Assembly: GCA_029247075.1 (NCBI GenBank)
Contig: JAQWLX010000012.1
Span: 1 to 58,629, forward strand
Direction of reading: 5' to 3'
Length of the DNA: 58,629 nucleotides
Source: Halieaceae bacterium
GTDB taxonomy: Bacteria > Pseudomonadota > Gammaproteobacteria > Pseudomonadales > Halieaceae
Of the stretch, positions 13,026-46,081 are shown one piece after another. Each line of letters begins with the position of its first letter. The stretch's first letter is position 1. The notes beneath the pieces were generated by a model. That model did no database searches. It worked only from the letters and a program-made list of their open reading frames with translations, and was not told the DNA's origin. A program made the translations under genes and the position numbers.

Positions 13026-14807
13026 TTGAAAAACACAATAGACAACATGTTCCTCTCTACATCCGCAGCAGATAAGGGTTTGGACGGTATTGCCTCCATA
13101 GCAGGTCCCGAAGTCGACTCAGATGTGCAGGGGTTTGAGACCACTTTTCGGCAAGCGCTGGCCGCCATTGACAGGTCGAGAAGTGGCAAGGACTTGCCAA
13201 AAAAATTACTAGAGTTTGATCCTGAAAAGTTAGCCGGCATGGCTTTGACGCAAAAGAAGCTCAGTTCAGATTCAACTGTCCTAATCGGAGATGCTGATTT
13301 AAGCAATCAAACGGTTATCGCTTTTGCCGCATTGCAGGGTATGGACGCTGAATCACTTAAAACGCTCTTTGAGAAACCTATTCTAGGTGATACAGAGGAG
13401 ATGAAAGACGCCTCAGAGAATGTAAAAATATTGACTGATAATTCGTTGGACGAATTTGTTGGAATGCCTCCTGGATCTGTGGAACAGACTGTAAGGGCGC
13501 TTGAAGAACAAGGTCTTTTACCTGAGATTCCCATTAGAGGATTAAAAGAAAAACTAGATTTTGAACATATTTCCGACGGTAAAATCAACTTGAAAAGCCA
13601 CGTAGATACTGGAAAAAAATTTTCCGAAGCAGAATCTATGTTCCAAAGAGCAGATGGACAAGTCGAAAACATAACTAATAATTGGTTGAACCTTAGGACT
13701 GGAGAAAACGCAGTAAATTCGACCGAGGTGCGTGGTATGGCTTCTCGTAAAAGTGCAGATTTTCCGCACAATAATACTGCTATAGATGCTGTAGATAGTG
13801 AGTTAGAGTCTGTTGCGCGAGAATCAGCAGTGATCGGAAAAGATTCTGTTGCGATTTCTTCCAATAAAGGTGTTAAGCCTGGGCACTCAGATTTAAGAAC
13901 GGCACCAGGTGTAACCTCAGGAATCGATACTTCTGAATCGGATTTGACCAGGATTGATCTTAAGAAGTTAAATATAAGCTCAGCGGTTGATACCAATGCA
14001 AACTCGAGTCCTAGGCCAGAAACAGGTTTAAAGAAAGAGATCGAAATTAATTCTGGATTCGTAAATTCTTCAGGACCGCGTCATGAGAAAGTACAGGCTA
14101 GATCAGATTCGGAGCAACTCTTGGAATTTGAAGAAATACAGTTAACAAAAGATAACAAAATATCGAGTGCTCCATCTTCTGTTTTGCAGGCGACAAGAAC
14201 GATTAATGATGTAGTGCCTCAATCTCAGTATGTTAATTCCATCGGACCAGCAAAACCAGTAATACAGCAGGCTAATTTAACTGGCTCAGTACCAGTTGGA
14301 GAGGTAGCTGGATTAGAGGTAGTGGGATCAAGCTCAGATTCGAATACAACTTTAGACACTCTTACTCAACCGAAAGGGTTAAGTCCAAGGGTAGCCGTAG
14401 ATGATTTGCCTGGCAAATTAACAGCGTTAGTTCAGCAACGAATAGTTAATGGTTTAAAGGTGGAAGGCTGGCGTTATCAAGTACACTTGCACCCAGAAGA
14501 GTTAGGTAGTGTAGAAATTCAAATGGAGATGATCGATGGCCGCTTGGAAGCTCGTATCTTGGCGAGTAACGTCGCTGCAAGAGATTTATTGAATGAGCAT
14601 CTTGCAAGGTTGGAAGAATCTTTACAAAACGGTGGGATTAAGGAAAGTATGGTACAAGTAGGTTTGGAACAAAGACAGGATTCTAAAAAGTCATTTGATT
14701 CGAGTGACGGTAATCAAGAAAATCAGACCGAACTTGCAGATGGCGATGAAAGTGAGATTGATGATGCGGGACAAAGTAATGATGGTGAATTAGACGTTTT
14801 TGTCTAA
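13026..14807 (+). CDS. fliK: flagellar hook-length control protein FliK
   Basis: 593 aa. TTG start preceded by AAGAGG. Low-complexity central part. C-terminal Flg_hook-type domain (YQVHLHPEELGSVEIQMEMIDGRLEARILASNVAARDLLNEHLARLEESL). Confidence 0.88.
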   Translation: MKNTIDNMFLSTSAADKGLDGIASIAGPEVDSDVQGFETTFRQALAAIDRSRSGKDLPKKLLEFDPEKLAGMALTQKKLSSDSTVLIGDADLSNQTVIAFAALQGMDAESLKTLFEKPILGDTEEMKDASENVKILTDNSLDEFVGMPPGSVEQTVRALEEQGLLPEIPIRGLKEKLDFEHISDGKINLKSHVDTGKKFSEAESMFQRADGQVENITNNWLNLRTGENAVNSTEVRGMASRKSADFPHNNTAIDAVDSELESVARESAVIGKDSVAISSNKGVKPGHSDLRTAPGVTSGIDTSESDLTRIDLKKLNISSAVDTNANSSPRPETGLKKEIEINSGFVNSSGPRHEKVQARSDSEQLLEFEEIQLTKDNKISSAPSSVLQATRTINDVVPQSQYVNSIGPAKPVIQQANLTGSVPVGEVAGLEVVGSSSDSNTTLDTLTQPKGLSPRVAVDDLPGKLTALVQQRIVNGLKVEGWRYQVHLHPEELGSVEIQMEMIDGRLEARILASNVAARDLLNEHLARLEESLQNGGIKESMVQVGLEQRQDSKKSFDSSDGNQENQTELADGDESEIDDAGQSNDGELDVFV

Positions 14808-18914: not shown

Positions 18915-20072
18915 ATGGCTGAAGAGAGTCAACAAGAAGACAAAACAGAAGAACCGACAGCGAAGCGTCTTGAAAAAGCAAGAGAGGAAGGCCAGGCCAT
19001 TCGTTCTCAGGATTTGAATGTTGCGGTCATGGTCATGATGGTTGTAATAACTATGTACGCCTTTGGTGGAGCACTAATAGATTCGTTACTGGAAGTATTC
19101 TCGAGAGGTTTTGTATTCGATAGAAGGTTGGTTTTTTCGGAGCAGTTATTCTCTGGCGTGGTCGGTACAGAGCTTAGAGATGCATTTTGGGTCATTGCAC
19201 CTATACTGGTACTAACTATTATTTTGGCCATTATTCCCTCAGCCACTCTGGGAGGGTTTATTTTTTCCTTCAAAGCTGTGGCACCTAAGCTTTCTAAATT
19301 AAGCCTCATTAATGGATTTAAGAGAATCTTTGGCACCAAAGCGCTCATAGAATTAGCTAAGGCAATTTTAAAATTCCTTCTCATAGGGTCATCGTTGTTT
19401 ATCGTCTATACGATGTATGCAAAAGATTTCATTTATTTGTCTGTGATGGCGATTAAGCCGGCGATTGAAAGTGCCGCCAACATGCTGTCGCTGGGAATGT
19501 TATTTGTCTGTATAAGTCTCATATTGGTAGCGTTAGTCGACGTGCCATACCAGATTGTCTCTTTTAAAAATCGCATGAAAATGACTAAACAGGAGGTCAA
19601 GGATGAACGCAAAGAGATGGAAGGACAGCCGGAGGTGCGAGCTCGTATAAAGCAACGCCAGCGCGATATGGCAATGCAATCAATGCTTGAAGCTTTACCT
19701 ACTGCAGACGTTGTTGTAACTAACCCTGAACATTTTGCAGTAGCACTTGCTTATGATCCTAATGGCAGTGATCCACCGAGAGTCGTAGCAAGGGGAGCAG
19801 ACTTCATGGCTTTACGTATTCGTGATCGCGCTACACAAGAAGGCATTTCGCTTTTTGAAGCTCCACCTTTGGCTAGGGCCCTGTATTTTACCACCGATGT
19901 TGGTAGTTTTATTCCTGAGGCGTTATATCACGCAGTCGCCCAGGTAATAGCTTATGTTTTTTCCATTGGAACATTTAGCGCTTCTGGAGAATATCAACGT
20001 CCCAAACCCAAAGTGCCACCTGAACTGGACTTCGATGAAACAGGTAAATTAAAGGATGAAGTCATTCAATGA
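18915..20072 (+). CDS. flhB: flagellar export switch protein FlhB
   Basis: 385 aa. N-terminal EEPTAKRLEKAREEGQ, four TM helices. The autocleavage region VVVTNPEHFAVALAYD reads NPEH instead of NPTH. Confidence 0.95.
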   Translation: MAEESQQEDKTEEPTAKRLEKAREEGQAIRSQDLNVAVMVMMVVITMYAFGGALIDSLLEVFSRGFVFDRRLVFSEQLFSGVVGTELRDAFWVIAPILVLTIILAIIPSATLGGFIFSFKAVAPKLSKLSLINGFKRIFGTKALIELAKAILKFLLIGSSLFIVYTMYAKDFIYLSVMAIKPAIESAANMLSLGMLFVCISLILVALVDVPYQIVSFKNRMKMTKQEVKDERKEMEGQPEVRARIKQRQRDMAMQSMLEALPTADVVVTNPEHFAVALAYDPNGSDPPRVVARGADFMALRIRDRATQEGISLFEAPPLARALYFTTDVGSFIPEALYHAVAQVIAYVFSIGTFSASGEYQRPKPKVPPELDFDETGKLKDEVIQ

Positions 20073-21565
20073 GCAACTCCGATATAGAAAATAACAAACA
20101 AAAAAAATCCATAGATAGCTGGATGGAAGGTGATATGTTGTTTTTGCGCGAGCAGGACAAGATGCAAATAAGCTCAATTCCAGTGCGTCTATCTCAGGAT
20201 AATCCCTACGTTGTTATATGTGGGCCCAAGGTGGATTTACTAAATTATTATTTTGAATATTTGTACGCGCAATTAAAGGGCAGTGACCAATATGAGCTAG
20301 AAGTATTTTTTTCTGTAACTACAGATGCTCTGCTGGATTTTTACAACAAGCGCCTAGCAGATATTAGCGTAAATGCAGCGAAAAGTGCGACTGATTCCGA
20401 GTTATATAGAAAAATTTTAGTCATCAGTGATTGTACTGGTATGGCTAAAAACGAGTGGGATTTACTGGCTAGGCTGCTGATTGATTTTCCGGGTGCAAAC
20501 TGTGGTGTATTAATAATATGCGAGGAACCTTTCAACCAACAAGTGGAAGCATTTTTTAAACTTTTAGGTTCTCGTTTGACGCGCTGTTATTGTAATTTTC
20601 CAGATACTCGTGAGCTTGTTAGTTTTCTAGATGCATCTTCTGTGACCCCCTATCATTCTCACAATAAGAAAACATTAGCTGCTTTGGGGATAACAGGAGC
20701 AGATCTAGAAGTAGATCACTCAAAAAGTCATTCAGAGGAAAGTGATGCGGATATTTCTCCGGAGGCTTCAGGAGAAAAGAAATTTAATAAGTTTCTATTC
20801 TTTACCTTTGTTCTTGTTTTGGTTGTCGCTTTTGGAGTTGCTTACCTATTAAATCATGATAACGATACTGACTTTGAGGTGGTCGATCAAACTATCGCTA
20901 ATGATGATAATGATTCAATTTTAGCTCAAAAAGATCGAGATCAGTTGACCACCAAAGAAAGTGGCAATCATTTATCGGATGCTGTAATTGAAGAGGAAAT
21001 GGAAGAAATCATTTCGTTCTCGGAGGGAAATATTGCCGTCCAGATGGTTGGTTTGTCTAAGGAAGAGGATGTTGTCGAGTCTCAAATTAAGGAATTAAAC
21101 ACGAATGACCCAATAAATGAAGTTGCATTTGAAGAGCAAGCTGAAACGGTAGAAGAAGATATATCATCTATAACGGTTGATGCAATCTCGTTGTCCGAGG
21201 ACTCACAAGAGGTTGAAGAGGTTAATGAGCAAATTTTGGAAGAGCAAGATGATGATTTATCCAAAGACAAGATTGAGTCTTCGATCGATATTGCAGCCTA
21301 TTACCTGCAGCATGCGGCGTTGAGTTCTGAGTCTGCTGCAAACACAGCCGCAAGAGAAGCCTTTACTAATTTTTCAACCGCATTTTCACTGCCACAGTTT
21401 TCGCAAGCAAAACTCTGGCATGTAGTTTTTTCTGGGCCTTATGCTACGCGTACAGAAGCTATGAATGTTGCTAAAGAAAATGGGGTGACTGCCGATGTTG
21501 TCATAGTAAGAGGAACGTATGTGGCTTCCAGAGTTCCTTCCGAGGTAGAAGATGACGGAAGGTGA
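20069..21565 (+). CDS. bitopic protein: degenerate P-loop-like N-terminal domain, TM helix, acidic linker, C-terminal SPOR-like peptidoglycan-binding domain
   Basis: 498 aa. The ATG overlaps the flhB stop (ATGA). VVICGPKVD sits at the Walker A position and ILVISD at Walker B. TM FLFFTFVLVLVVAFGVAYLL. The C-terminus YYLQHAALSSESAANTAA...LWHVVFSGPYATRTEAMNVAKENG resembles DamX/FtsN SPOR domains. Confidence 0.6.
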   Translation: MSNSDIENNKQKKSIDSWMEGDMLFLREQDKMQISSIPVRLSQDNPYVVICGPKVDLLNYYFEYLYAQLKGSDQYELEVFFSVTTDALLDFYNKRLADISVNAAKSATDSELYRKILVISDCTGMAKNEWDLLARLLIDFPGANCGVLIICEEPFNQQVEAFFKLLGSRLTRCYCNFPDTRELVSFLDASSVTPYHSHNKKTLAALGITGADLEVDHSKSHSEESDADISPEASGEKKFNKFLFFTFVLVLVVAFGVAYLLNHDNDTDFEVVDQTIANDDNDSILAQKDRDQLTTKESGNHLSDAVIEEEMEEIISFSEGNIAVQMVGLSKEEDVVESQIKELNTNDPINEVAFEEQAETVEEDISSITVDAISLSEDSQEVEEVNEQILEEQDDDLSKDKIESSIDIAAYYLQHAALSSESAANTAAREAFTNFSTAFSLPQFSQAKLWHVVFSGPYATRTEAMNVAKENGVTADVVIVRGTYVASRVPSEVEDDGR

Positions 21566-24004: not shown

Positions 24005-24733
24005 CTAACTAATTTTTTTATTGATAGTAGCACGCAATTTCTTAGCAGTCGCAGAAAGAATTTGCGAAACTCGGGACTCATTTACACCTATAATTGCTCC
24101 AATCTCTTTCAGGTGAAGTTCTTTTTCATAATATAGAGAAAGCACAAGTTGATCTCGTTCAGGTAGATTTTTTATTTCATCGGCAAGCATTGAGCGTACT
24201 TCATCATCTTGAACAGACTCTTGAGGGTTTATAGAGTGAGAACGGGTGTCGACTCTCTCGCTGAGTGCAGAAGAGCTTTCTTCGGTTATAGTTTGAAAAC
24301 GATTAGCATGCTCTCGTTCATGTTCAAATTGATCCAAACTAATCCCCAAATGATCTGCAACCTCTGAATTTCTAGGTTCTCGACCTAGTTTGTTATTAAG
24401 AGTTTTTATTGCTTCGTTATGAGATTTTATATTTGAAATAGCCGATCTCGGAAGACTGGAAAGTCTCCTAACTTCATCCAGAATAGAGCCTTTAATTCGA
24501 GTTTTTGCAAAGAAATCAAATTCTACGCCTTCATCAGAACGGAAATTTTTAACCGCCTCCATTAGGCCGATCGTGCCTACTTGAATCATGTCATCGAGTT
24601 CAATGATATCGGGAATACGGGCCTTTAAGTGAAGAGCTATACGCTTGACCAACGCAAGATTATGTAATACCGCATTATCTCCCAGCGCCTCGTTCTGGAT
24701 TTCACCGTAGGTCCTGACTCCATCCCTAACCAC
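24005..24733 (-). CDS. fliA: flagellar sigma factor sigma28 (FliA)
   Basis: 242 aa, GTG start. Region 2 DDMIQVGTIGLMEAVKNF, region 4 HTH LHLKEIGAIIGVNESRVSQI. Follows flhG. Confidence 0.93.
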   Translation of the reverse strand: MVRDGVRTYGEIQNEALGDNAVLHNLALVKRIALHLKARIPDIIELDDMIQVGTIGLMEAVKNFRSDEGVEFDFFAKTRIKGSILDEVRRLSSLPRSAISNIKSHNEAIKTLNNKLGREPRNSEVADHLGISLDQFEHEREHANRFQTITEESSSALSERVDTRSHSINPQESVQDDEVRSMLADEIKNLPERDQLVLSLYYEKELHLKEIGAIIGVNESRVSQILSATAKKLRATINKKIS

Positions 24734-28907: not shown

Positions 28908-28923
28908 TGCAAGGGTTGTGCCA
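28908..28923 (-). promoter_or_regulatory. sigma54 promoter for the flhA-flhF-flhG-fliA operon
   Basis: The reverse complement reads TGGCAC-AACCC-TTGCA, ~50 nt upstream of the flhA start. Confidence 0.8.
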
Positions 28924-28964: not shown

Positions 28965-28991
28965 TAAAGAATTTATTGAGAATGTCGATTT
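28965..28991 (+). promoter_or_regulatory. sigma28-type promoter for the flgP-like operon
   Basis: TAAAGAAT (28965-72) - 11 nt - GTCGATTT (28984-91), ~60 nt before ATG 29053. Confidence 0.6.
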
Positions 28992-29052
28992 ACTTGAGTG
29001 TTGGACTAGGTTTAGCCTATAAGTTTTTGTTGTAGTGCGAGGATTACGAGAT

Positions 29053-29565
29053 ATGAAGATAAAAAAGAAAGCTTTATCCGCTGCGTTGCTGCTGTTTCTA
29101 AGCAATATGTTGCTTAGCTCTGCCATTTTTGCAGATCATCGTGCTTCTCACAAAAACGTTCGACCTACTGCCAGTTCGGGTGGTTCGGTTAGAGCTTTGG
29201 TCGAAGACCAATACACTGTGACAGCCACTGGTTATGCAGTAATTGCGGTTCAGCGCCATAGTAATCCTGCGCAGCAGCGTTTGATGGCGATAAGGGCAGG
29301 AAAGATGGATGCCTATCGATCTCTTGCAGCTCAAGTATATGGTCAGCATGTGAATTCGACCACTACCCTTGGCGACTTGATAGTCGGTAGTGATGTTTTC
29401 AGAGCGAGAATCGAGGGCGTGATTTATGGTGCGGAGCTTGTAAGTATTGAAACTGTAGGTGATGATACTTATGCTGTCACACTCAGTCTGAACCCGCGAG
29501 TAGTAAACGATTTGAGAAAATTATACTTAAAATATTCTAACCAATTTGCAAGAAAGGCTTCATAA
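29053..29565 (+). CDS. flgP: LPP20/FlgP-family flagellar basal-disk protein, apparently not lipidated
   Basis: The track ORF starts at GTG 29035. ATG 29053 has SD GAGGA. Signal peptide with no Cys. TATGYAVIAV...QQRLMAIRAGKMDAYRSLAAQVYG...EGVIYGAELV...DDTYAVTLSL fits the LPP20/FlgP pattern. Confidence 0.7.
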   Translation: MKIKKKALSAALLLFLSNMLLSSAIFADHRASHKNVRPTASSGGSVRALVEDQYTVTATGYAVIAVQRHSNPAQQRLMAIRAGKMDAYRSLAAQVYGQHVNSTTTLGDLIVGSDVFRARIEGVIYGAELVSIETVGDDTYAVTLSLNPRVVNDLRKLYLKYSNQFARKAS

Positions 29566-29592: not shown

Positions 29593-30750
29593 ATGAGTGA
29601 TCCCAGAGGGTATAAAAATTGGCTCAGGTTAGTGTCCACCCTGATTTTTTTCGTGTTTTTTTTCGGAGGGTACGCCTATGCGGATGATAAATTATCTGCG
29701 GAGGAGAGATTGGAAGCCTTACGTCAGTCCTTACTAGACGAGGCGTTGAGCGGTGAAATAGACATTGTGTCAAGTGCTTATGTAGGCTCAGATGGCCAAA
29801 TGCATGAGTCGGCCTATATTACTGCAAATAAGTCTGTTCGAGGTGTTAGGGTAGTAGGGTACGTGAATCCGGAGCCTTCCAGTTCGCCTGCTCCACCCCG
29901 CCGGCGTTCAAAGGATAACTGTGTCTCAAAACGTTACCGTCCCCAGTTGGTTGTTTCGGCGATTCCCCGTGGCAATCCAAACACTAGAGTGGGTTCGGTT
30001 TACTTAAGTGCTGTGGTATCTGAGACGCGTGAAAAATTACTAGAAAATCTAAGAAATAATTCACAAGTGGTTGTTGTAGAAAGTGATGAGGGTTTGTATG
30101 AAACAGAATATGACGCGATCCTAGCACGAGTCGACCAAGGAGTCGGTTCTTATAAGCTAAATGTGGAAATCGGTTTAAGCACTACTCAAGCCGGGAAAAT
30201 TGACAAAGGGATTTACCAGGCAGGTAAAGCAGCGAATAGCATTTGGCAATATGTTCCGTTCTTTAACGTTTACCGAGGATCTCCGGCAAATATAGCTGGA
30301 GGTATAAACTACAAACTTAAAGTAAACCAGGTAGACCAGCCCAAAATAGTATTTGCTGCAAATGAAGAAATTAGTTTTAGGAGTGAGCCAGAGCCAACTC
30401 GAGCTACGGTTTTGCCGAGTAAGCTTCGAGAAGAAATCAGGGGATCAGTTGGAGATATCCTTGAAGAAGTTTTGGGCGGCTTGCTATGCGAGCCTGAAAG
30501 AATCGTCACACGACGTGCCCAAGACGGAACATACTCGTTGCTTGCTGGACAAGCAGCGGGAGTAACTTCTGGTGATCAGTTTATTTTAGTGAGGACGGCG
30601 ATCTGGGATCGTGACCGACTTGATATTAACGATGTTGCGGAATTGGCGTTAGCGAGAGTGGAGTTTGTCTATAAAAATGAGTCGGCGATTAAAGTGATCG
30701 CCGGACCGAATGCCCCAGATTCCGGAAGTCTCATAGCCATACCATTTTGA
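29593..30750 (+). CDS. secreted protein of unknown function; possible FlgT/FlgO-like outer ring component (context and size only)
   Basis: 385 aa. N-terminal signal/anchor (LVSTLIFFVFFFGGYAYA). Follows the flgP-like gene in the same sigma28 operon. No motif I can name with certainty. Confidence 0.45.
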   Translation: MSDPRGYKNWLRLVSTLIFFVFFFGGYAYADDKLSAEERLEALRQSLLDEALSGEIDIVSSAYVGSDGQMHESAYITANKSVRGVRVVGYVNPEPSSSPAPPRRRSKDNCVSKRYRPQLVVSAIPRGNPNTRVGSVYLSAVVSETREKLLENLRNNSQVVVVESDEGLYETEYDAILARVDQGVGSYKLNVEIGLSTTQAGKIDKGIYQAGKAANSIWQYVPFFNVYRGSPANIAGGINYKLKVNQVDQPKIVFAANEEISFRSEPEPTRATVLPSKLREEIRGSVGDILEEVLGGLLCEPERIVTRRAQDGTYSLLAGQAAGVTSGDQFILVRTAIWDRDRLDINDVAELALARVEFVYKNESAIKVIAGPNAPDSGSLIAIPF

Positions 30751-30760
30751 GGTGATAGAT

Positions 30761-31174
30761 ATGAATTCTTGGAAATATTGTTTTGCGTGCCTTGTCTTCT
30801 TGTTACCGATTAATCTAGCGGCAGGAAACGATTCGGTGGACAGTGCTCTGGCAACTTTGCTGGGTACAGATGTTGCCAATGGGAAGGCAGTTAAAAAGCA
30901 ATCTGGAAGCTATGGGTCTACCTATAACGTCCGTCGCGGAGATACCCTCGACGCAATCATAAGACAAAGTTTTAATACTTCAAAAATCCGAAGACCGATT
31001 ATTCGTCAGGCATTTGTTAAGGCAAATCCAGGTGTATTCCGTCGAGGAAATCCTAATTGGATGTATGCTGGTAAGGTGTTGACCATGCCAGAGGTTAAAG
31101 ATTTTCAGAAAGCTATTTTTGTGGATGGTGCCCCGACTGCTAGCGGCAAACGTGATTGGGTTAGTTATCCTTAA
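30761..31174 (+). CDS. secreted FimV/HubP-type LysM domain protein
   Basis: The track start is GTG 30752. ATG 30761 follows GAGGTG. Signal peptide. YNVRRGDTLDAIIRQ...AFVKANPGVFRRGNPNWMYAGKVLTMP resembles the FimV N-terminal LysM. Confidence 0.65.
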   Translation: MNSWKYCFACLVFLLPINLAAGNDSVDSALATLLGTDVANGKAVKKQSGSYGSTYNVRRGDTLDAIIRQSFNTSKIRRPIIRQAFVKANPGVFRRGNPNWMYAGKVLTMPEVKDFQKAIFVDGAPTASGKRDWVSYP

Positions 31175-31186
31175 AACGAATTTCCA

Positions 31187-32299
31187 ATGACAAGCGGAGT
31201 AGAACAGCTAGGCCTTTCCTCTCGACCTTTGAGTGGCGTGTTAGTCAATCAACCTCCTATACAAATCACGGAAGCAATTGCGAAAGAACTTCAGCTACGA
31301 GATGGTCAAATTGTAAAGGCATTGGTAGAGCATGGCGGTAAACATTTACTGCTTAGTGCAAATGAGAGGAGTTTCAGTCTGCCGGTAGGATCAATATATT
31401 CCGCTGGAGCTACGCTAAGTCTTCGGTATGCCACCAGCATCTATGGCAAGCATTTATTGCCGACTAGTCAGCCTGCGTCCTCGAAAAACGTTTCTTTGAG
31501 CAGAACTCCCACTACTACTGCGTCTCCTTCAGGTTTGGTGCAACTTGCACTTTCATACTTAGGGAAGCTTAATAGTGTGGGCTTGGGGTCGCAGGATCTT
31601 GCATCTATTCTAGGAGTTTCTGGATTTGCTGTATCAGTAGATAAATCGAGAGATAAAGGTGTATCTGAAAAGGTGCGATTGCCGCAGTTTCCCTCAAAAA
31701 GCTCCAGAATCACACCTAGACTAGTGGCCGACGCGCTGCTCCATTCAGGCTTATTTTCAGAGTCGATCTCGACCGATAAGTTGCGAGGCAGGCTGGATAT
31801 AAAACAAACTTTGCTCTGGTTACGAGAAGCGTACTCGCAAGATATCGACCAGATAGTAAAGATTTCAGGGGCAATTGACGCGATTGAATTAGCCCAAATA
31901 GAGAGCTTGATCGCTCAAGAAAGACGTGAGGTGTTGTATCGCTTTGCTTTTCCCTTTCAGGAAGGTAGTAGTGTCCAGGTCGAGATAGAGGGGCGCAACC
32001 AGGGTGGAAACAAAGGAGGTCGTTCTTGGTCAATTGCATTAGATACGGTTGATCCAAGTTTGGGAGATGTTTCGGTAAAAGCCTCCCTCCTTGATAAAGG
32101 TGCTCTAGATATAACGTTCTGGGCTGATAGACCAGGGACAGTGTCGTTGATGAAGAATATGTTGTCCGAGTTAACTTTTGAATTAGAGAGATACCAAATT
32201 ACCGTGACCAACACGAATGTAATAATAGGGAGAAGGGTTAGGGAGAATTCAGCTTCAAACGCTGAAGTACAAGGCTCTTTCCTTGATTTGGAGACATAG
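31187..32299 (+). CDS. second FliK-like protein (C-terminal Flg_hook-type domain)
   Basis: 370 aa. The C-terminus DPSLGDVSVKASLLDKGALDITFWADRPGTVSLMKNMLSELTFELERYQITV follows the LG.V.V...G.l.v.f.a....r..L...L..L...L pattern of FliK C-domains. Confidence 0.6.
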   Translation: MTSGVEQLGLSSRPLSGVLVNQPPIQITEAIAKELQLRDGQIVKALVEHGGKHLLLSANERSFSLPVGSIYSAGATLSLRYATSIYGKHLLPTSQPASSKNVSLSRTPTTTASPSGLVQLALSYLGKLNSVGLGSQDLASILGVSGFAVSVDKSRDKGVSEKVRLPQFPSKSSRITPRLVADALLHSGLFSESISTDKLRGRLDIKQTLLWLREAYSQDIDQIVKISGAIDAIELAQIESLIAQERREVLYRFAFPFQEGSSVQVEIEGRNQGGNKGGRSWSIALDTVDPSLGDVSVKASLLDKGALDITFWADRPGTVSLMKNMLSELTFELERYQITVTNTNVIIGRRVRENSASNAEVQGSFLDLET

Positions 32300-32308
32300 G
32301 TGTAATGC

Positions 32309-32584
32309 ATGATGGGTGACTCGGAAAAGAAAGCGGTTGCACTAAAATACGAGCAACATTCTACGCCAAGAGTTATCGCGAAAGGCGATTATGAGATTGC
32401 AGAAGCCATGATACAGAATGCGATTGCTCAGGGAATCCCGATAACTAGCGATCCAGCTTTAGTCGGAGTGCTGATGAATTTAGAATTGAATGAAGAAATT
32501 CCAGAGGAGTTGTATGTAGCTGTTGCAGTTATCTTATCTTGGGTGTATTGGCTTAGAGGGGATACTCCTGAAAGCTTGAGATAG
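32309..32584 (+). CDS. stand-alone FlhB C-terminal (CC) domain protein (FlhX/YlqH-like T3SS switch-domain paralogue)
   Basis: 91 aa. KAVALKYEQHSTPRVIAKGDYEIAEAMIQNAIAQGIPITSDPALVGVLMNLELNEEIPEELYVAVAVILSWVY matches the post-NPTH part of FlhB/YscU proteins. Confidence 0.8.
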   Translation: MMGDSEKKAVALKYEQHSTPRVIAKGDYEIAEAMIQNAIAQGIPITSDPALVGVLMNLELNEEIPEELYVAVAVILSWVYWLRGDTPESLR

Positions 32585-32588
32585 ACGG

Positions 32589-33017
32589 TCAGGTTTTCTT
32601 AATTGGCGTGTTATATTTTGGCTTAGCAAGGCCGCCTGCCTTAGTATACACCTCGACATCATCGGTCGCAGAGCCTTCCCTAAGAGATGCCAGCGCCCCT
32701 TTTACCGCCTCGAGTTTTCTATTAATAAGAATTTCATTTCGTCTATGAAGTTCATGACAGCGATCTATCAGTATCTTAATAGAAGAAACTTCTTCTTGGT
32801 GGGATTGAGAAATTTCTGAAGTATCTGATGCATTGATAGACTCAATGAGTCCATCAGTTCCCAATACCTCCATAATTGCAATTTTTCGAGGCTGAAGTCT
32901 ATCGAAAGAATCCATATCCTGTTGTTTCAAAGCTGAAAATTCCTGCTCTAAAATTTTCTCAAGAGTCTCTAGTTGAATACTAATTTGCTTAGGTTGATCG
33001 GGAGCGTCTTTGGCCAT
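32589..33017 (-). CDS. flgN: flagellar chaperone FlgN
   Basis: 142 aa, helical. LEKILEQEFSALKQQDMDSFDRLQPRK. Position downstream of flgM. Confidence 0.8.
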   Translation of the reverse strand: MAKDAPDQPKQISIQLETLEKILEQEFSALKQQDMDSFDRLQPRKIAIMEVLGTDGLIESINASDTSEISQSHQEEVSSIKILIDRCHELHRRNEILINRKLEAVKGALASLREGSATDDVEVYTKAGGLAKPKYNTPIKKT

Positions 33018-36341: not shown

Positions 36342-39290
36342 ATGTCATTTTATACCTCATTAACAGGATTAAACGCAGCCACTACCGAGCTTGCGGTAAC
36401 CTCAAACAACATTGCTAACGCCGGAACCTCCGGTTTTAAACGATCCGATGCTGACTTCGGTGACATTTTCGCAACGTCACCTTTGCAGCGTGCGGCGAGT
36501 GTGATCGGTGCCGGGGTATCGCTTAAATCGGTGTCTCAGGAATTCAGTCAGGGAAACATTGAGTTTTCAGCGAACTCTCTGGACCTGGCGATTACCGGTG
36601 ACGGTTTCTTCGCATTGGAATCTCCAGACGGTACCAAGATATTTACGCGTAACGGTGGTTTTATGCTCAACGAGCAAAACCAGATGGTTAACGCGGCGGG
36701 TCAGGCCTTGATGTCATTGCCGGTTGACTCGACAAATACTGCGGATTTTAGTGCGCCTCTGACTGCGATGACAATTCCAAGACAAACGGTTGCAGAATTT
36801 AGAGCGACTACTAGCGTGGAGTTGGGTCTTAACCTGCCATCTACTAGCGAGCCGATTACAGAAATCTTTAATCCGAATAATCCAGAGACTTACCACAAAA
36901 CAACTTCTTTGACGGTGTATGGAGCTTCAGGTTCGAGCCACCTTGCAACGATTTACTATGTGAAGACCGGAGAAGCCACAGCGGCTGATCCATTCAACAA
37001 ATGGCAGACGCACGTTTACATTGATGATCAAAAGGTGACACCTCGCCTGATTCAGTCCGCTGATACTGCGGGTGATAAATATTACGTTAACAAGTACGGA
37101 GAATTGAAAACTGAGTTGGAATTATTGGCGTTGCAGCGAACCAGTGCAGAAAGTGAAAAATATTTGATTACGACCGGTACGCAGTACAAGAAATATTCTT
37201 ACGATCAATTGTCAACTCCGATCAACTCGCAGCCCGCTGCGGTTGAAATGAAGATACCGGCCACATCGCCTTATACCGATAACTTGAATCTGACAAATAA
37301 CCAGGACGGTGTGGACTTTTCAACTTTTACACGAGCAAATTTGAAAGACATGTTTAATCTAAGCATTGATGGCTCTCCATTAGTATCGATAGGTTTAGAG
37401 CATTTAGCGGGAGATGCGCTTAAGCTTTCAGGTAACCAGATCGCGTTTGAACTCCAGAATGTTTTAAACAGCCGTTTCGGGGATGGAAAACGTTTTGATT
37501 TTGGTGCTGCGGCGACTGATGCTGAAGCCGCGCTAGGGAAAATAACGTTATATCGAGAAGCTCCCGTTTGGACAGGGGCGGCATGGTCAGTCCCGAAAAA
37601 TATCACCTTAGATCTTAGGGCACTTGTCGCGGCAGCGGGCGCAACTTACAACGTTGATGCCAATGGTGAGGTTCCTCCAGAGGAACTTGCCGAGATAATC
37701 ACAACCGCACTTGATGCGAACGCTGCATCTGGTAACAAAGATTTTGAGGACATAGAAGTAATCTATGACTACGAGAATCTGGGTTTCCGGTTTACACAAG
37801 GCGGGACCAAAAAAGATAATATATACGTCGCAAGCACAGCCGGGTCGGGAACTAATTCCTTGTTCGGTGTCAAAGAAATCACTGTTCCGACTGGCGGTGA
37901 TGTTGCAGAAGATAACCCGCCAACTTACGGCACGCTACTGCCTCCGCTCGATAGCAACCAGGCAATCACTTTATTAGGCAACGTCCTTCCAAATGGAACT
38001 GGGGAACGTGCTTTAGCTGACCAACGCTATGGCCTTCAGGTGTCATATGCGGACGGTCAGTTTAATATCACGTCGGGCCAAACCGGTGATACATCCAGTA
38101 TCCAGGTGACAGTAAATAGTACGACTGCTGGAACCCCTCCCGTTACAACTTTGAGCCCGGCTTCACTGTTAGCAACAGATTTGCTAGGGATTAATGCAAA
38201 CGGACATGAAGTTTCTCCGCAGGTCTCGACGATAGCGAACTTACCTACAATACGTGGTCAGGCATCACAGGCTGCGGTAGTTCATGGTGGTCCGATGGGG
38301 GTTGATCCCTCAGCATCTTTCGCGGTGACACCAGCTAATAGAACATTAACCTGTATTGTCGATGGTATTTCTTCCCAGATTACGCTGACAGAAGGTCAGT
38401 ACTCGATCGGAACCTTCACAACGCACTTACAGGAAAAGATTAACCTGATGGCGGACGGTCTTGGACGAAGTGTATCGGGCATTACCGTCGGGTTTGATGA
38501 TGCCACCGAGCAACTAATTGTTACAGGTGGTACAGCTAAGTCAGATTCATTTATCCAGATCGCAGGTTCTTCAGACTGGGGACTTGATAACGTAGAAGCC
38601 GCGTTTGCAAAGGTATCAACCTACATTCAGTTGTATCCAGATCAACAGGGAAGTGCTGATGTTTACGTTGCACAGGACACTGACGGAAATTGGGAAGAGA
38701 CTACCGATAAAGGTGAATTTGATGAACAGGACATTCCTTATTGGACACCGATCTTCTTGGATCGTGGTGAGCTGACCTTTGATACATCGGGTACCTTGGT
38801 ATCACCGATGGGCGGTGCAGAACTTCAAAGTGATGGCATCACCGGAACATCAATTGCGGTCGCGTACGATGGAAGTACTCAGTTTAACAGCCCCTTCGCT
38901 GTATTAAGTCAGAACCAGAATGGTGCGGCTGAAGGAGATTTGGTTGGCGTTAACATCGGCGATAACGGATTGGTGGTTGCCAGTTATTCAAACGGATCCC
39001 AGAAGTCTCTCGGTAAGATCATTATTGCGAACTTTGCCACGCCGAAAGGTCTGCGTCAGATTGGTGATGCGAGCTTCTTCGCGACCTCTGAATCTGGCGA
39101 AGCGGCATACGGAGAACCCGGTGCGGCAGGTTTCGGAACACTGAGAGCCGGTGCACGAGAAAGATCAAACGTGGACTTGACCGGTGAACTGGTTGACCTA
39201 ATCACTGCGCAACGGAACTTCCAAGCTAATGCCAAGGCGATTGAGACGAGTTCTTCGTTGACGCAAACCATCATTAATATCCGCGGATAA
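36342..39290 (+). CDS. flgE: flagellar hook protein FlgE, giant form
   Basis: 982 aa. N-terminus MSFYTSLTGLNAATTELAVTSNNIANAGTSGFKRS. C-terminus SNVDLTGELVDLITAQRNFQANAKAIETSSSLTQTIINI. A ~600-aa central insertion. Confidence 0.93.
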   Translation: MSFYTSLTGLNAATTELAVTSNNIANAGTSGFKRSDADFGDIFATSPLQRAASVIGAGVSLKSVSQEFSQGNIEFSANSLDLAITGDGFFALESPDGTKIFTRNGGFMLNEQNQMVNAAGQALMSLPVDSTNTADFSAPLTAMTIPRQTVAEFRATTSVELGLNLPSTSEPITEIFNPNNPETYHKTTSLTVYGASGSSHLATIYYVKTGEATAADPFNKWQTHVYIDDQKVTPRLIQSADTAGDKYYVNKYGELKTELELLALQRTSAESEKYLITTGTQYKKYSYDQLSTPINSQPAAVEMKIPATSPYTDNLNLTNNQDGVDFSTFTRANLKDMFNLSIDGSPLVSIGLEHLAGDALKLSGNQIAFELQNVLNSRFGDGKRFDFGAAATDAEAALGKITLYREAPVWTGAAWSVPKNITLDLRALVAAAGATYNVDANGEVPPEELAEIITTALDANAASGNKDFEDIEVIYDYENLGFRFTQGGTKKDNIYVASTAGSGTNSLFGVKEITVPTGGDVAEDNPPTYGTLLPPLDSNQAITLLGNVLPNGTGERALADQRYGLQVSYADGQFNITSGQTGDTSSIQVTVNSTTAGTPPVTTLSPASLLATDLLGINANGHEVSPQVSTIANLPTIRGQASQAAVVHGGPMGVDPSASFAVTPANRTLTCIVDGISSQITLTEGQYSIGTFTTHLQEKINLMADGLGRSVSGITVGFDDATEQLIVTGGTAKSDSFIQIAGSSDWGLDNVEAAFAKVSTYIQLYPDQQGSADVYVAQDTDGNWEETTDKGEFDEQDIPYWTPIFLDRGELTFDTSGTLVSPMGGAELQSDGITGTSIAVAYDGSTQFNSPFAVLSQNQNGAAEGDLVGVNIGDNGLVVASYSNGSQKSLGKIIIANFATPKGLRQIGDASFFATSESGEAAYGEPGAAGFGTLRAGARERSNVDLTGELVDLITAQRNFQANAKAIETSSSLTQTIINIRG

Positions 39291-43099: not shown

Positions 43100-46081
43100 A
43101 TGGCAGACATACTTTCAGTTGGCACGTCAGCAGTAAATGTCTATCGACAGGCGCTGACGACCGTCAGTAACAATATCGCTAATATGAATACTGAAGGATA
43201 TTCCCGTCAGGAAGCGATATCGACTCAAAATTTGCCCACTGAGCAAGGTCAGTCTTTTATTGGAACAGGTTCGTCACTCAAGCGAATTACCCGAAGTTAC
43301 GATCAATTTCTTGAAGGTAACTTGAGGCAAAGTAATAGCGAATTATCGTCGCAAACACCTTTGATTAACTACTCCCAGCGCATAGTCGATATTATGGGAG
43401 ATTCACAGTCAGGACTTGCCGGGGCACTAGACAAATTCTTTAGTGACGCCGAAGTGTTGAGTACGGATCCGGCGTCGGGCGGACTGAGAACGACATTCCT
43501 GGCATCCAGTGAAAGCCTAGTTTCTAGGATACGATCTATCTCGCAATCTCTGTCTGACGTTGTCCGCGATGTTAATGGGGAGACAGAGACGGTAGTTAAT
43601 GCAATAAATGAGAAAGCTAGCCAACTAGCGTTTTTAAATGGACAGATGGCGAGTAATCCGAGCAAGCTGAGCCAGAACCCTGCTTTAATGGATTCACGTG
43701 ATTTGCTACTCCACGAGTTATCCGGATTAGTCAAAATTAAGGTCACTGAAAATTCTGCGGGCCTGGTCGATGTAGAGTTAGCTGGTGCTGGCGCTGCTGG
43801 GACCATTGTGAATGGAATAAAATCTCGCGATATTGGTGTGCAGACCTATGCAGAAGCAACTAAAAAATCACTAGTTTCAGCGGACCCCGCGGGTGATTCG
43901 GTCCCTCTTCCTGCGATTCAAGGAGGTGAGTTGGGAGGATTAATAAGCCTCAGGAACGCTGCCTTGATGGAGACCGTCGAGGATTTTGATCTTTTTGTAG
44001 AAGGTTTTGCGAACGAAATAAATAAAATTCATTCTGGGAGTATGGATAAGAAGAATCAAAGCGGTGCTCAATTATTTGCCACGGCACCTGTAGTGGAGTT
44101 AGTCAGTAGTGACATGAGGGCTGAGAGCCCGGCTACTGCGATTGTAACAGATGTTAAAAATACGGTGCCTTCACTAGATGTCACCTGGTACGCACAAGAT
44201 AAGAAATTTCTTGTGCAAGATGGGATCGCTGACAAGTGGTTTGATAGTGCGACGGCAACAGGCATAGGAAAAATTAAAACCAATGGTCTGGAAATTGATA
44301 TAACGAAAACCTTGTCAAACAGGCAGAAAATTACTTTATCGGTTTTGAGCAGGCCTGCAGAGACGATTAAGGTAGGAATAGCGAATGGCGATGAAATCGC
44401 CGCCGCCGATAGGTTGCGCGTGATTGTCGATACGGCAAACAATGGAGATTCGAAAGCCGCGATTACCTATGATCCAGAAAGAGCCGATGTTGCGTTGCCA
44501 GGTTTTGATTTAGGTTCTTTGGTCACGGGATCAAAAGTATTAAATAATCTTGTGACCACAGATAATATAAAGCCTTGGAGCTATTTGACTGCAGGATCTA
44601 CTGGATCAAGTGTTGTCTTAGATGTACCCGTTGGGAATACGACCCGGATTGACTTGATCACTAAAGATGGAGTCCATCTTTTGGGTAAACAACCCACCAA
44701 CACGTCTTTATGGCTCACAGGTAATAGTTTTTTTAACGAGGGAGTCTCTTATAGCTCTACTTATCTAAATAAGACCGGATCAAACGCGTTTCTTGATCTG
44801 GACGTGACTTTTGGATTCAGTCAAGCGAAATCCTCTATGTTGTCGGCTTCATCGCCGAACGAATTTACTAGTGCTAGCGTGAATGCTTACACGAACTCGA
44901 CCGCTTCGAGTGTAGACTGGATTGCAAATGGCGCTTTATCACTTAACGGCATATCTCTTAACGCACTTACCGTTCCAAATAGCGGACCAACTGCAACCAC
45001 CTCTGCAAACACGTTGGCCACTTGGCTAAATGCTCAATCAGGTGCGACCGGTGTCACAGCTACAGCTGTCACAGAAATAAATGTCACGAAAAAGCAGGCT
45101 AATTTTGGTCAGGGTCTTACGATAAATGGAACCACCATTAACAATGCAAATACGGCGACGACTTTAAGTCAACTAGCGGATCGTATTGGTGCGATGAGTG
45201 CAACCACCGGTGTTGACGCGTACCTTGGGCTGGATGACAACATAGTATTAACCAATACCGCTGGGAATGAGGGAAAAAATATTGCTATTGGTAGCACGTC
45301 TGTTCCGAACACGCTTGGTGTCACAGATGCCACCTATTCAGGAAAACTCAAGCTCAGCGCCGCCAGTAATATCAAGTTTCAAGTCAACGAGGTTGCAGGG
45401 ACTCTGGGTTATCTCTCCGAACTTTCCAAATTAGGAATATCGGGCGGTGTTTATATAGACGGTGTGGTCCCTGAAGATTTAGCGGTGTTGGTTACGGACA
45501 CCACCGCATCGAATGTAAATATCGAGGCGAGGGTGGCAAGCAAGGCGCCTGATTCTGAGCTAAATCCGCAGCCAGAGGATCCTATAAAACTCGATTTTCT
45601 TGCGGGTGGATTGGTCACTATTACAGATACAAAAACAGATACGGTAGTGAGAAAACAGACGTTTGATCCACTAAAACCAATAATTTACAAAGGAGTCGAC
45701 ATTCGTTTTGATAATGCACCCCTGGTGGGAGATAGCTTTGTAGTTGAATCAAATCTAGATGCGCCCGGCGACAACGGTGGTATCCGAAGAATTGCTCTTT
45801 TGCAGACTCAACCTATCTTTCTTGGTAGTCGAAATGCTGGGGACGCATATACCGATATAGTTAATGACATGGGTGCTAAGGGATTTGTAGCAGAGATATC
45901 TCAGCAGGCGCTAGAGGTGGTTTACACGCAAGCGGTGGAGGCCGAGTCCGCGGCTTCGGGCGTTACTTTGGATAAAGAAGCTGCTGATTTGGTTCGTTAC
46001 CAACAATCCTTTCAGGCAGCGGCCCAGGTTATACAAGTATCGACACGTTTGTTTGACTCGATTATTCAAGCAACCCGTTAA
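43100..46081 (+). CDS. flgK: hook-filament junction protein FlgK (HAP1), very long form
   Basis: 993 aa. N-terminus LSVGTSAVNVYRQALTTVSNNIANMNTEGYSRQ. C-terminus GVTLDKEAADLVRYQQSFQAAAQVIQVSTRLFDSII. Confidence 0.93.
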   Translation: MADILSVGTSAVNVYRQALTTVSNNIANMNTEGYSRQEAISTQNLPTEQGQSFIGTGSSLKRITRSYDQFLEGNLRQSNSELSSQTPLINYSQRIVDIMGDSQSGLAGALDKFFSDAEVLSTDPASGGLRTTFLASSESLVSRIRSISQSLSDVVRDVNGETETVVNAINEKASQLAFLNGQMASNPSKLSQNPALMDSRDLLLHELSGLVKIKVTENSAGLVDVELAGAGAAGTIVNGIKSRDIGVQTYAEATKKSLVSADPAGDSVPLPAIQGGELGGLISLRNAALMETVEDFDLFVEGFANEINKIHSGSMDKKNQSGAQLFATAPVVELVSSDMRAESPATAIVTDVKNTVPSLDVTWYAQDKKFLVQDGIADKWFDSATATGIGKIKTNGLEIDITKTLSNRQKITLSVLSRPAETIKVGIANGDEIAAADRLRVIVDTANNGDSKAAITYDPERADVALPGFDLGSLVTGSKVLNNLVTTDNIKPWSYLTAGSTGSSVVLDVPVGNTTRIDLITKDGVHLLGKQPTNTSLWLTGNSFFNEGVSYSSTYLNKTGSNAFLDLDVTFGFSQAKSSMLSASSPNEFTSASVNAYTNSTASSVDWIANGALSLNGISLNALTVPNSGPTATTSANTLATWLNAQSGATGVTATAVTEINVTKKQANFGQGLTINGTTINNANTATTLSQLADRIGAMSATTGVDAYLGLDDNIVLTNTAGNEGKNIAIGSTSVPNTLGVTDATYSGKLKLSAASNIKFQVNEVAGTLGYLSELSKLGISGGVYIDGVVPEDLAVLVTDTTASNVNIEARVASKAPDSELNPQPEDPIKLDFLAGGLVTITDTKTDTVVRKQTFDPLKPIIYKGVDIRFDNAPLVGDSFVVESNLDAPGDNGGIRRIALLQTQPIFLGSRNAGDAYTDIVNDMGAKGFVAEISQQALEVVYTQAVEAESAASGVTLDKEAADLVRYQQSFQAAAQVIQVSTRLFDSIIQATR

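Follow-up and report, generated by a model that had tools for sequence, protein, structure and literature searches.

The fliK2-flhX gene pair in the flagellar cluster

The stretch of DNA that has been analysed here, which we refer to as the window, is the 58,629-nucleotide contig JAQWLX010000012.1 of a Halieaceae bacterium (assembly GCA_029247075.1): a 58.6-kb flagellar cluster from a metagenome-assembled genome of 2.1 Mb that is ~71% complete. Within this cluster we have focused on two adjacent genes: fliK2, whose product of 370 residues ends in a FliK-type domain, and flhX, whose product of 91 residues is homologous to FlhB-CC, the cleaved C-terminal subdomain of FlhB. An earlier reading of the DNA, made from its letters alone (the sequence-only reading), had singled out this pair; we have found that it is this bacterium's copy of an already named pair, fliK2-flhX, that is mainstream across phyla, and that there is nothing new in kind about it. 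The two genes and their canonical counterparts are located as follows:

31187..32299, + strand: gene 4, fliK2, an open reading frame (ORF) of 370 residues, with a Flg_hook match and a full-length family alignment
32309..32584, + strand: gene 5, flhX, 91 residues, a free-standing FlhB-CC homologue
32290..32294, + strand: Shine-Dalgarno sequence GGAGA of flhX, within the 3' end of fliK2
13026..14807, + strand: canonical fliK, 593 residues, Flg_hook 62.6 bits, with a sigma-54-type motif upstream, in a fliHIJ-fliK-fliL block
18915..20072, + strand: canonical flhB, 385 residues, with an NPEH cleavage motif

The ORFs of fliK2 and flhX are separated by 9 nucleotides and lie in one reading frame. A six-frame search of the whole genome has returned exactly two Bac_export_2 matches and two Flg_hook matches, all within the cluster of the window; the origin of the pair in a second flagellar system is therefore ruled out, and canonical fliK and flhB coexist with fliK2-flhX within a single flagellar system.

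The names are those given in Pseudomonas putida KT2440, where PP_4328 is listed as fliK2 (FliK C-terminal domain, IPR021136, uncharacterised) and PP_4329 as flhX, an orthologue of Helicobacter pylori HP1575 (bioRxiv 10.1101/2021.08.29.457346); the two genes are reported to be co-transcribed as class IV genes for which FliA is essential (bioRxiv 10.1101/2021.08.29.457346; PMC5026340). The window resembles P. putida in that a gene for a FliK C-terminal domain adjoins an FlhB-CC-like gene in a genome that also contains canonical fliK and flhB. From profile, domain and synteny comparisons we infer that the FliK2 of the window is probably the orthologue of PP_4328; word-indexed homologue searches with FliK2 have returned close relatives only, and no named Pseudomonas protein.

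The structure of FliK2

The assignment of a FliK-type C-terminal domain to the 370-residue protein, first made in the sequence-only reading, is confirmed by Pfam, by a family-wide signal, and by an AlphaFold model compared with known structures by Foldseek. The Pfam searches with Flg_hook and Bac_export_2, which that reading had named as a check, have matched both proteins of the pair. In the case of FliK2, the Flg_hook match (28.6 bits, E-value 1.3e-6, residues 276-345) just misses the gathering score of 29.8, while the corresponding match in the six-frame genome search, at 31.6 bits, is above the cut-off. Profile-profile alignment (hhalign) places FliK2 residues 280-351 onto residues 481-551 of the genome's own FliK, i.e. 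onto its Flg_hook region; BLASTP finds no similarity between FliK2 and this canonical FliK, and a sequence search of the Protein Data Bank (PDB) with FliK2 finds nothing.

The AlphaFold model of FliK2, which has been built with an alignment of 48 sequences, has a mean predicted local distance difference test score (pLDDT) of 72, with values of 85-92 over residues 249-347. Its first-ranked Foldseek match in the PDB is the SS domain of PscP (5cuk; probability 1.0, root-mean-square deviation 2.4 Å over 66 columns) and its second is FliK-C (2rrl). The following parts can be distinguished in the protein:

31259..31462, + strand: N-terminal beta domain, residues 25-92, AlphaFold pLDDT 74-84, with the conserved motif GLRDGQxVxAxV
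31532..31921, + strand: central helical region, residues 116-245, from the AlphaFold secondary structure, with conserved E192, K206 and Q237
31931..32227, + strand: T3S4/Flg_hook switch-type alpha/beta domain, residues 249-347, from Pfam, pLDDT 85-97
32273..32296, + strand: octapeptide GSFLDLET at the C-terminus, with the motif of the family, G-x-[VLF]-[LIV]-D-x-x-[ATV]-COOH

The N-terminal beta domain matches no Pfam family. Disorder is predicted by AlphaFold for residues 1-21, which bear the conserved start M-[IL]-x-G-x-E, for a Pro/Ser-rich linker of variable length at residues 94-113, and for the tail. Because its fold matches the T3S4 type and its N-terminal and central parts are predicted to be folded, FliK2 is predicted to be a T3S4 protein without a ruler, the place of which is taken by the folded beta domain and the helical region. 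It shares with FliK the T3S4 fold and a C-terminal peptide with an aspartate at position -4, the elements through which FliK acts on FlhB-CC, as well as a partner of the FlhB-CC type, and differs from FliK in the lack of a predicted disordered ruler and of BLASTP similarity to the FliK of its own genome. The PscP SS domain being the top structural match, FliK2 also resembles the injectisome proteins HpaC (of Xanthomonas), PscP and YscP, which act on the membrane-bound gate protein of the injectisome; to our knowledge, no free CC-domain partner gene accompanies any of these three.

The octapeptide motif is found at the exact C-terminus of 44 of the 48 members of the FliK2 family. The tails of canonical FliK proteins of the same order follow the motif [G/Q]-x-[VLI]-D-x-[YF]-[AVI]-COOH, and the FliK of the window ends in GELDVFV (14787-14807; the other tails are from loci L116-L124): in both kinds of tail, position -4 is an aspartate and position -5 is hydrophobic, while position -2 is charged in FliK2 and aromatic in canonical FliK. 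As tails of this kind also occur in canonical FliK, we regard the tail of FliK2 as a FliK feature; the idea that it takes the place of VVVTN, the CC-pairing strand of FlhB-CN, is not supported (tail pLDDT 30-38 in a read-through model of FliK2 and FlhX). Relative to the literature consulted, the terminal octapeptide and the ruler-less family that is conserved over its full length are new details.

FlhX as a free-standing copy of FlhB-CC

FlhX matches Pfam Bac_export_2 with 61.5 bits over model positions 262-335 of 335, i.e. the last 74. It aligns to residues 274-351 of Salmonella FlhB (PDB 3b0z, chain B); since chain B starts at P270 and the alignment at 274, the homology begins immediately past the site of NPTH cleavage. 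In FlhX the homologous strand is AVALKY, from residue 9 on, just past the NPTH position, and the eight residues ahead of it carry no NPxH; nor does NPxH occur within the first 40 residues of any of the 73 ORFs of the FlhX family. The protein is small and soluble, without a transmembrane or CN part, and is 34% identical to residues 270-349 of the window's own FlhB. The view that the 91-residue protein, 9 nucleotides on from fliK2, starts just past the NPTH site and mimics the cleaved switch domain has thus held.

In the alignment to Salmonella FlhB, residues P20, A73 and L76 of FlhX fall on P287, A341 and L344, and T19 falls on A286; in the FlhX family alignment, P20 and A73 are invariant and L76 is nearly so. 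The corresponding FlhB residues, A286, P287, A341 and L344, are described as the docking pocket for early substrates (PMC13344023; PMC8983047). Judged from these alignments, FlhX reproduces in soluble form the cleaved FlhB C-terminal subdomain (FlhB-CC, also CCD) and has kept the residues of the hydrophobic pocket in which early (rod/hook-type) subunits dock.

Like H. pylori FlhX (HP1575) and Bacillus subtilis YlqH, the protein of the window is a small stand-alone homologue of post-NPTH FlhB that lacks the transmembrane and CN parts. Its best NCBIfam model, TIGR00789 (flhB_rel), is the one to which these proteins belong; unlike them, FlhX scores 79.2 bits, under the cut-off of 117.35, so that Pfam, architecture and context are the basis of its membership. 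We know of no FliK-like gene adjacent to flhX in H. pylori.

Canonical FlhB, the product of 18915-20072, reads VVVTNPEHFAVALAY at its cleavage motif, so that the NPEH ascribed to it is indeed there. It is unremarkable, because the solved FlhB-C structure 6z0w likewise reads PEH, and it has no visible bearing on the idea, put forward together with it, that the pair serves a second, late specificity event or modulates the main FlhB.

Distribution and pairing

The distribution of the pair has been explored by a pattern scan in which each species was represented by one genome; 80 loci with FlhX relatives have been fetched, 62 of them clean enough for the gap between the two genes to be measured. 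The scan has returned more than 517 relatives of the 91-residue FlhX. In the 80 loci, the ORF immediately upstream of flhX nearly always encodes 350-470 residues; the gap between the two genes is -4 to +12 nucleotides in 51 of the 62 loci, and in 26 of them the genes overlap by ATGA. Flg_hook is matched by 56 of the 65 ORFs that lie directly upstream of flhX relatives (best E-value 1.2e-14), or, counting the FliK2 of the window, by 57 of the 73 sequences that have been scanned. The matching ORFs span beta-, gamma- and deltaproteobacteria and Nitrospirota, with a weak match in Paenibacillus.

A profile of FliK2 itself matches 381 cluster representatives at E<=1e-3; many of these align end to end, at 350-400 residues, and FliK2 is therefore a full-length family and not just a shared domain. 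In the order to which the window belongs, this profile matches 46 of 151 genomes and 33 of 97 genera, with flhX directly following the FliK2 match in all 29 complete loci (30 were fetched, one of which, L102, stops at a contig end), while ~85-90 of these 151 genomes contain stand-alone FlhX ORFs. The usual pattern in relatives is a strong Flg_hook match, which is the canonical FliK and has no adjacent flhX, together with a weak one that adjoins flhX. On this sequence evidence, fliK2-flhX is a widespread, mainstream flagellar gene pair across phyla.

It could be argued that fliK and the 3' part of flhB were duplicated and that the copies are now decaying, vestigial or neutral and without function, given that no phenotype is known for the pair and that the Pfam score of FliK2 lies at the threshold; loss of flhX alone is also said to have little effect in H. 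pylori. We regard this as very improbable: the ORFs are intact and conserved over their full length, with invariant motifs over hundreds of genomes and several phyla, and both the translational coupling and the FliA promoter have been kept.

The surroundings of the pair follow more than one pattern. A module of the order flgP-orf385-LysM-fliK2-flhX, followed by convergent flgN-flgM-flgA and then by flgBCDE, occurs in ~45 loci, from gammaproteobacteria of the Porticoccaceae/SAR92/HTCC2207 type and from Burkholderiales (Limnohabitans, Comamonadaceae, Polaromonas). Across loci L003-L054, fliK2-flhX is accompanied by a conserved trio: the FlgP homologue, the 385-residue protein and the LysM protein. 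In Desulfobacterales (L051, L055, L056, L058, L059, L071 and L078), a Flg_hook protein and flhX are situated between fleN-fliA and flgF-flgG-flgA-flgH-flgI, a different context that is equally conserved. In a pseudomonad-like genome of the same order (6.5 Mb, 64% GC), the pair (L115:6551-8505, G078:C35) is located outside any flagellar cluster, divergent from ccmABCDEF and with moeA following it; its first protein is longer than the FliK2 of the window (542 residues versus 370), matches Flg_hook with 62.5 bits and the FliK2 profile at 1.4e-19, and is preceded by a TCAAG-N14-GCCGTTAT motif.

In a few genomes the gene ahead of flhX is not of the Flg_hook type: it encodes an AMP-binding enzyme in Desulfamplus (L057:4078-5991), a 1525-residue protein with PKD repeats in a Desulfobacteraceae genome (L068:1421-5995), and proteins of 927 and 635 residues without a Pfam match in Chitinivibrionia and Paenibacillus (L061:3211-5991 and L070:4070-5974). 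Natural fusions of FliK2 and FlhX, for which the long ORFs of L008, L012, L014, L021, L023, L036 and L047 were candidates, have been rejected: these ORFs match Bac_export_2 only, and are start-codon overshoots in GC-rich DNA.

The five-gene operon and its promoter

In the window, fliK2 and flhX are the last two genes of a tightly packed block of five, flgP-orf385-LysM-fliK2-flhX, with intergenic gaps of 27, 1, 12 and 9 nucleotides. The remaining genes of the block, and the elements relevant to its transcription, are the following:

28965..28992, + strand: sigma-28 (FliA)-type motif of the five-gene operon, CTAAAG-N14-GTCGATTT; full site CTAAAGAATTTATTGAGAATGTCGATTT
29035..29565, + strand: gene 1, FlgP homologue (LPP20 family), secreted ring protein, from PDB sequence matches to FlgP chains
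29593..30750, + strand: gene 2, 385-residue protein, syntenic partner with a homologue in the same slot in ~40 loci
30752..31174, + strand: gene 3, 140-residue LysM/FimV-core-like protein, with weak TIGR03505 (FimV_core) and LysM matches, syntenic in ~45 loci
28909..28923, - strand: sigma-54-type motif TGGCACAACCCTTGC of the divergent flhA-flhF-fleN-fliA operon
24005..24733, - strand: fliA (sigma-28), with Sigma70_r2, r3 and r4 domains, between fleN and two genes without assigned function
314, 3522, 21472, 28965, 33435 (- strand) and 34775 (- strand): six sigma-28-type sites, TAAAG-N14-G[TC]CGAT, before flaG, fliS, orf107, the flgP operon, flgM and flgA

The product of gene 1 matches the FlgP chains of the solved motors 9yfg, 9yec, 9yds and 8z5n in a PDB sequence search (E-values 5e-17 to 3e-14) and Pfam LPP20 with 24.5 bits, while the product of gene 2 has no match in Pfam, NCBIfam or the PDB by profile and sequence searches. 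The label of outer-ring genes, which the sequence-only reading had attached to the operon, thus fits the first gene and not the remaining ones.

The TAAAG-N14-GTCGAT core of the operon's motif, TAAAGAATTTATTGAGAATGTCGAT, occupies positions 28965-28989, 46 nucleotides upstream of the first gene, in a region of 176 nucleotides that is shared with the divergent flhA. It has the same form as the motif upstream of flgM, a textbook sigma-28 target. A search of the window for TAAAG-N16-CGAT has yielded seven matches, six of which, equally spaced, lie upstream of flagellar genes; five of these six sites are intergenic, and the one at 21472, before orf107, falls inside the end of a SPOR gene. As flgA is an early gene, for a P-ring chaperone, the sigma-28 motif upstream of it is unexpected. 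Sigma-54-type motifs, TGGCAC-N5-TTGC, precede flhA (on the opposite strand), fliK (12966) and flgB (34702), so that canonical fliK and the operon of FliK2 differ in promoter type, sigma-54 versus sigma-28. Both motifs of the shared region have been retained in a relative that is 80% identical (L003), and of 40 syntenic loci, 23 have T[AC]AAG-N14-GCCGAT upstream of their first gene, where shuffled sequences would give 1.6.

From gene 1 through flhX, the window contains no promoter-like or sigma-28-like site. Together with the upstream motif, this supports a single putative sigma-28 transcript that would span flgP to flhX. We have also considered a sigma-28 promoter of its own directly upstream of fliK2: there is none in the window, and none within 300 nucleotides in 60 related loci. 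In this respect the window differs from P. putida, in which fliK2 and flhX make up an operon by themselves, under a promoter of their own; here the pair forms genes 4 and 5 of five, with the FlgP homologue first. In the group of the Burkholderiales and the Porticoccaceae-like bacteria, to judge by the motifs and gene order, fliK2-flhX has evidently been brought under the promoter of the FlgP ring genes. The placement of the pair in a sigma-28-type operon, as had been proposed from the window alone, is supported by the conservation of the motif in relatives and by the reported FliA dependence of the orthologous operon of P. putida (bioRxiv 10.1101/2021.08.29.457346; PMC5026340).

The company of FlgP and LysM proteins, which act outside the cytoplasm and with which FliK2 is apparently co-transcribed here, raises the question of whether FliK2 might itself be secreted, as a late export substrate, and serve as another measuring or checkpoint protein, e.g. 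at the junction between hook and filament or at the outer ring of FlgP, with FlhX as its private docking adaptor or chaperone. The disordered start with its conserved motif and the disordered linker of variable length would suit such a role, which we nevertheless consider improbable: the N-terminal and central parts are predicted to be folded and not ruler-like, the gate-recognition motif FxxxPhi is not conserved in the N-terminus across the family alignment, and genomes of the Pseudomonas type have the pair by itself, with no ring genes beside it.

Possible function of the pair

How the flagellar export system switches its specificity remains a matter of debate. In a recent model from Salmonella (PMC13344023, 2026), the cleaved C-domain of FlhB holds the export gate in the early mode, and FliK ejects FlhB-CC, which is then degraded, as the hook-basal body reaches its finished state and sigma-28 is activated; the same report describes that loss of FlhB-CC abolishes early export, and proposes that the last five residues of FliK engage FlhB-CC and flip the switch. 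The fliK2-flhX pair amounts to free copies of two parts of this proposed switch, which makes it an obvious, little-studied player in it.

With the domain identities, the operon structure, the promoter motif and the conserved pairing in hand, the reading that we favour, tentatively and at somewhat less than an even chance, is that a complex of FliK2 and FlhX in the cytoplasm stabilises the late state of export after the switch; the complex, its timing in this bacterium and the direction of its effect are the parts that we infer. The two products would be made together through translational coupling, and would form a complex that copies the encounter of FliK-C with FlhB-CC; such a complex is suggested by the obligate coupling of the genes and by the known interaction of FliK-C with FlhB-C. 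Under a FliA promoter, the pair would be made only after the hook-basal body is done and FlgM has been exported, a late timing that is proposed because of the sigma-28 motif, its conservation, and the FliA dependence of the orthologous operon of P. putida. Its appearance would then coincide, under the 2026 model, with the ejection of the gate's own FlhB-CC: FlhX might use its pocket to bind FliK or early subunits that are left over, while FliK2 might keep FlhX, and possibly ejected or still-bound FlhB-CC, off the gate.

Several points weigh against a cytoplasmic complex of this kind. When FliK2 and FlhX are modelled by AlphaFold as a single read-through chain, in which Q replaces the stops purely for the purpose of modelling, the tail and the linker of FliK2 stay disordered, at pLDDT 30-38; the pocket residues of FlhX may be conserved for folding alone; and cells with an old flagellum run their sigma-28 genes during the assembly of a new basal body, so that "late" need not mean post-switch for every machine. 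Furthermore, in H. pylori, the one organism for which a test of FlhX function is described in the sources consulted, FlhX is reported to replace a deleted FlhB-CC in part (Wand et al. 2006), which points to docking at the gate and not to a sponge in the cytoplasm.

This last result is also the starting point of the main rival to the cytoplasmic complex, a reading that we find possible, though doubtful: FlhX would be a spare part that docks on the FlhB transmembrane/CN stump in place of the gate's CC and restores or maintains early export, e.g. for new basal bodies, with FliK2 acting as its holder and later as its ejector from the cytoplasmic side. FlhX has retained the strand that pairs with FlhB-CN as well as the early-substrate pocket, and, as loss of FlhB-CC abolishes early secretion in Salmonella, a replaceable CC would reset the gate. 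Early export that is re-opened after filament assembly looks wasteful, however; the P. putida operon is strictly class IV, and there is no sign that the gate's own CC is limiting. The secreted-checkpoint and vestigial readings, discussed above, are less likely than either the cytoplasmic complex or the spare part.

A bolder formulation, which we think unlikely, is that FliK2-FlhX constitutes a second lock and key of the FliK-C:FlhB-CC type, timed by sigma-28, that sets whether gates carry CC: FlhX would re-arm the early mode and FliK2 would strip CC from the cytoplasmic side without any measurement of length. If this were true, the CC-ejection switch would be reversible or tunable in most polar flagellates.

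The pair is found in most flagellated genomes of the window's order and in several other phyla, and it offers a number of handles for further work: the obligate pairing, the pocket of FlhX, the terminal peptide of FliK2 and, in the Burkholderiales and Porticoccaceae-like group, the five-gene FlgP module. For a specialist the surprise is low; the pair is of moderate value as a test case, already at hand, for the CC-ejection model.

Additional features of the locus

Downstream of the pair, at positions 32582-32591, the stop codons of flhX (+ strand) and flgN (- strand) are convergent and 4 nucleotides apart, with no terminator-like hairpin between them; because of this arrangement, the flgP-flhX sigma-28 transcript and the flgM-flgN transcript must run into each other's coding regions. 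Elsewhere in the window, FlgE (982 residues, 36342-39290) and FlgK (993 residues, 43100-46081) are each more than twice their usual size.

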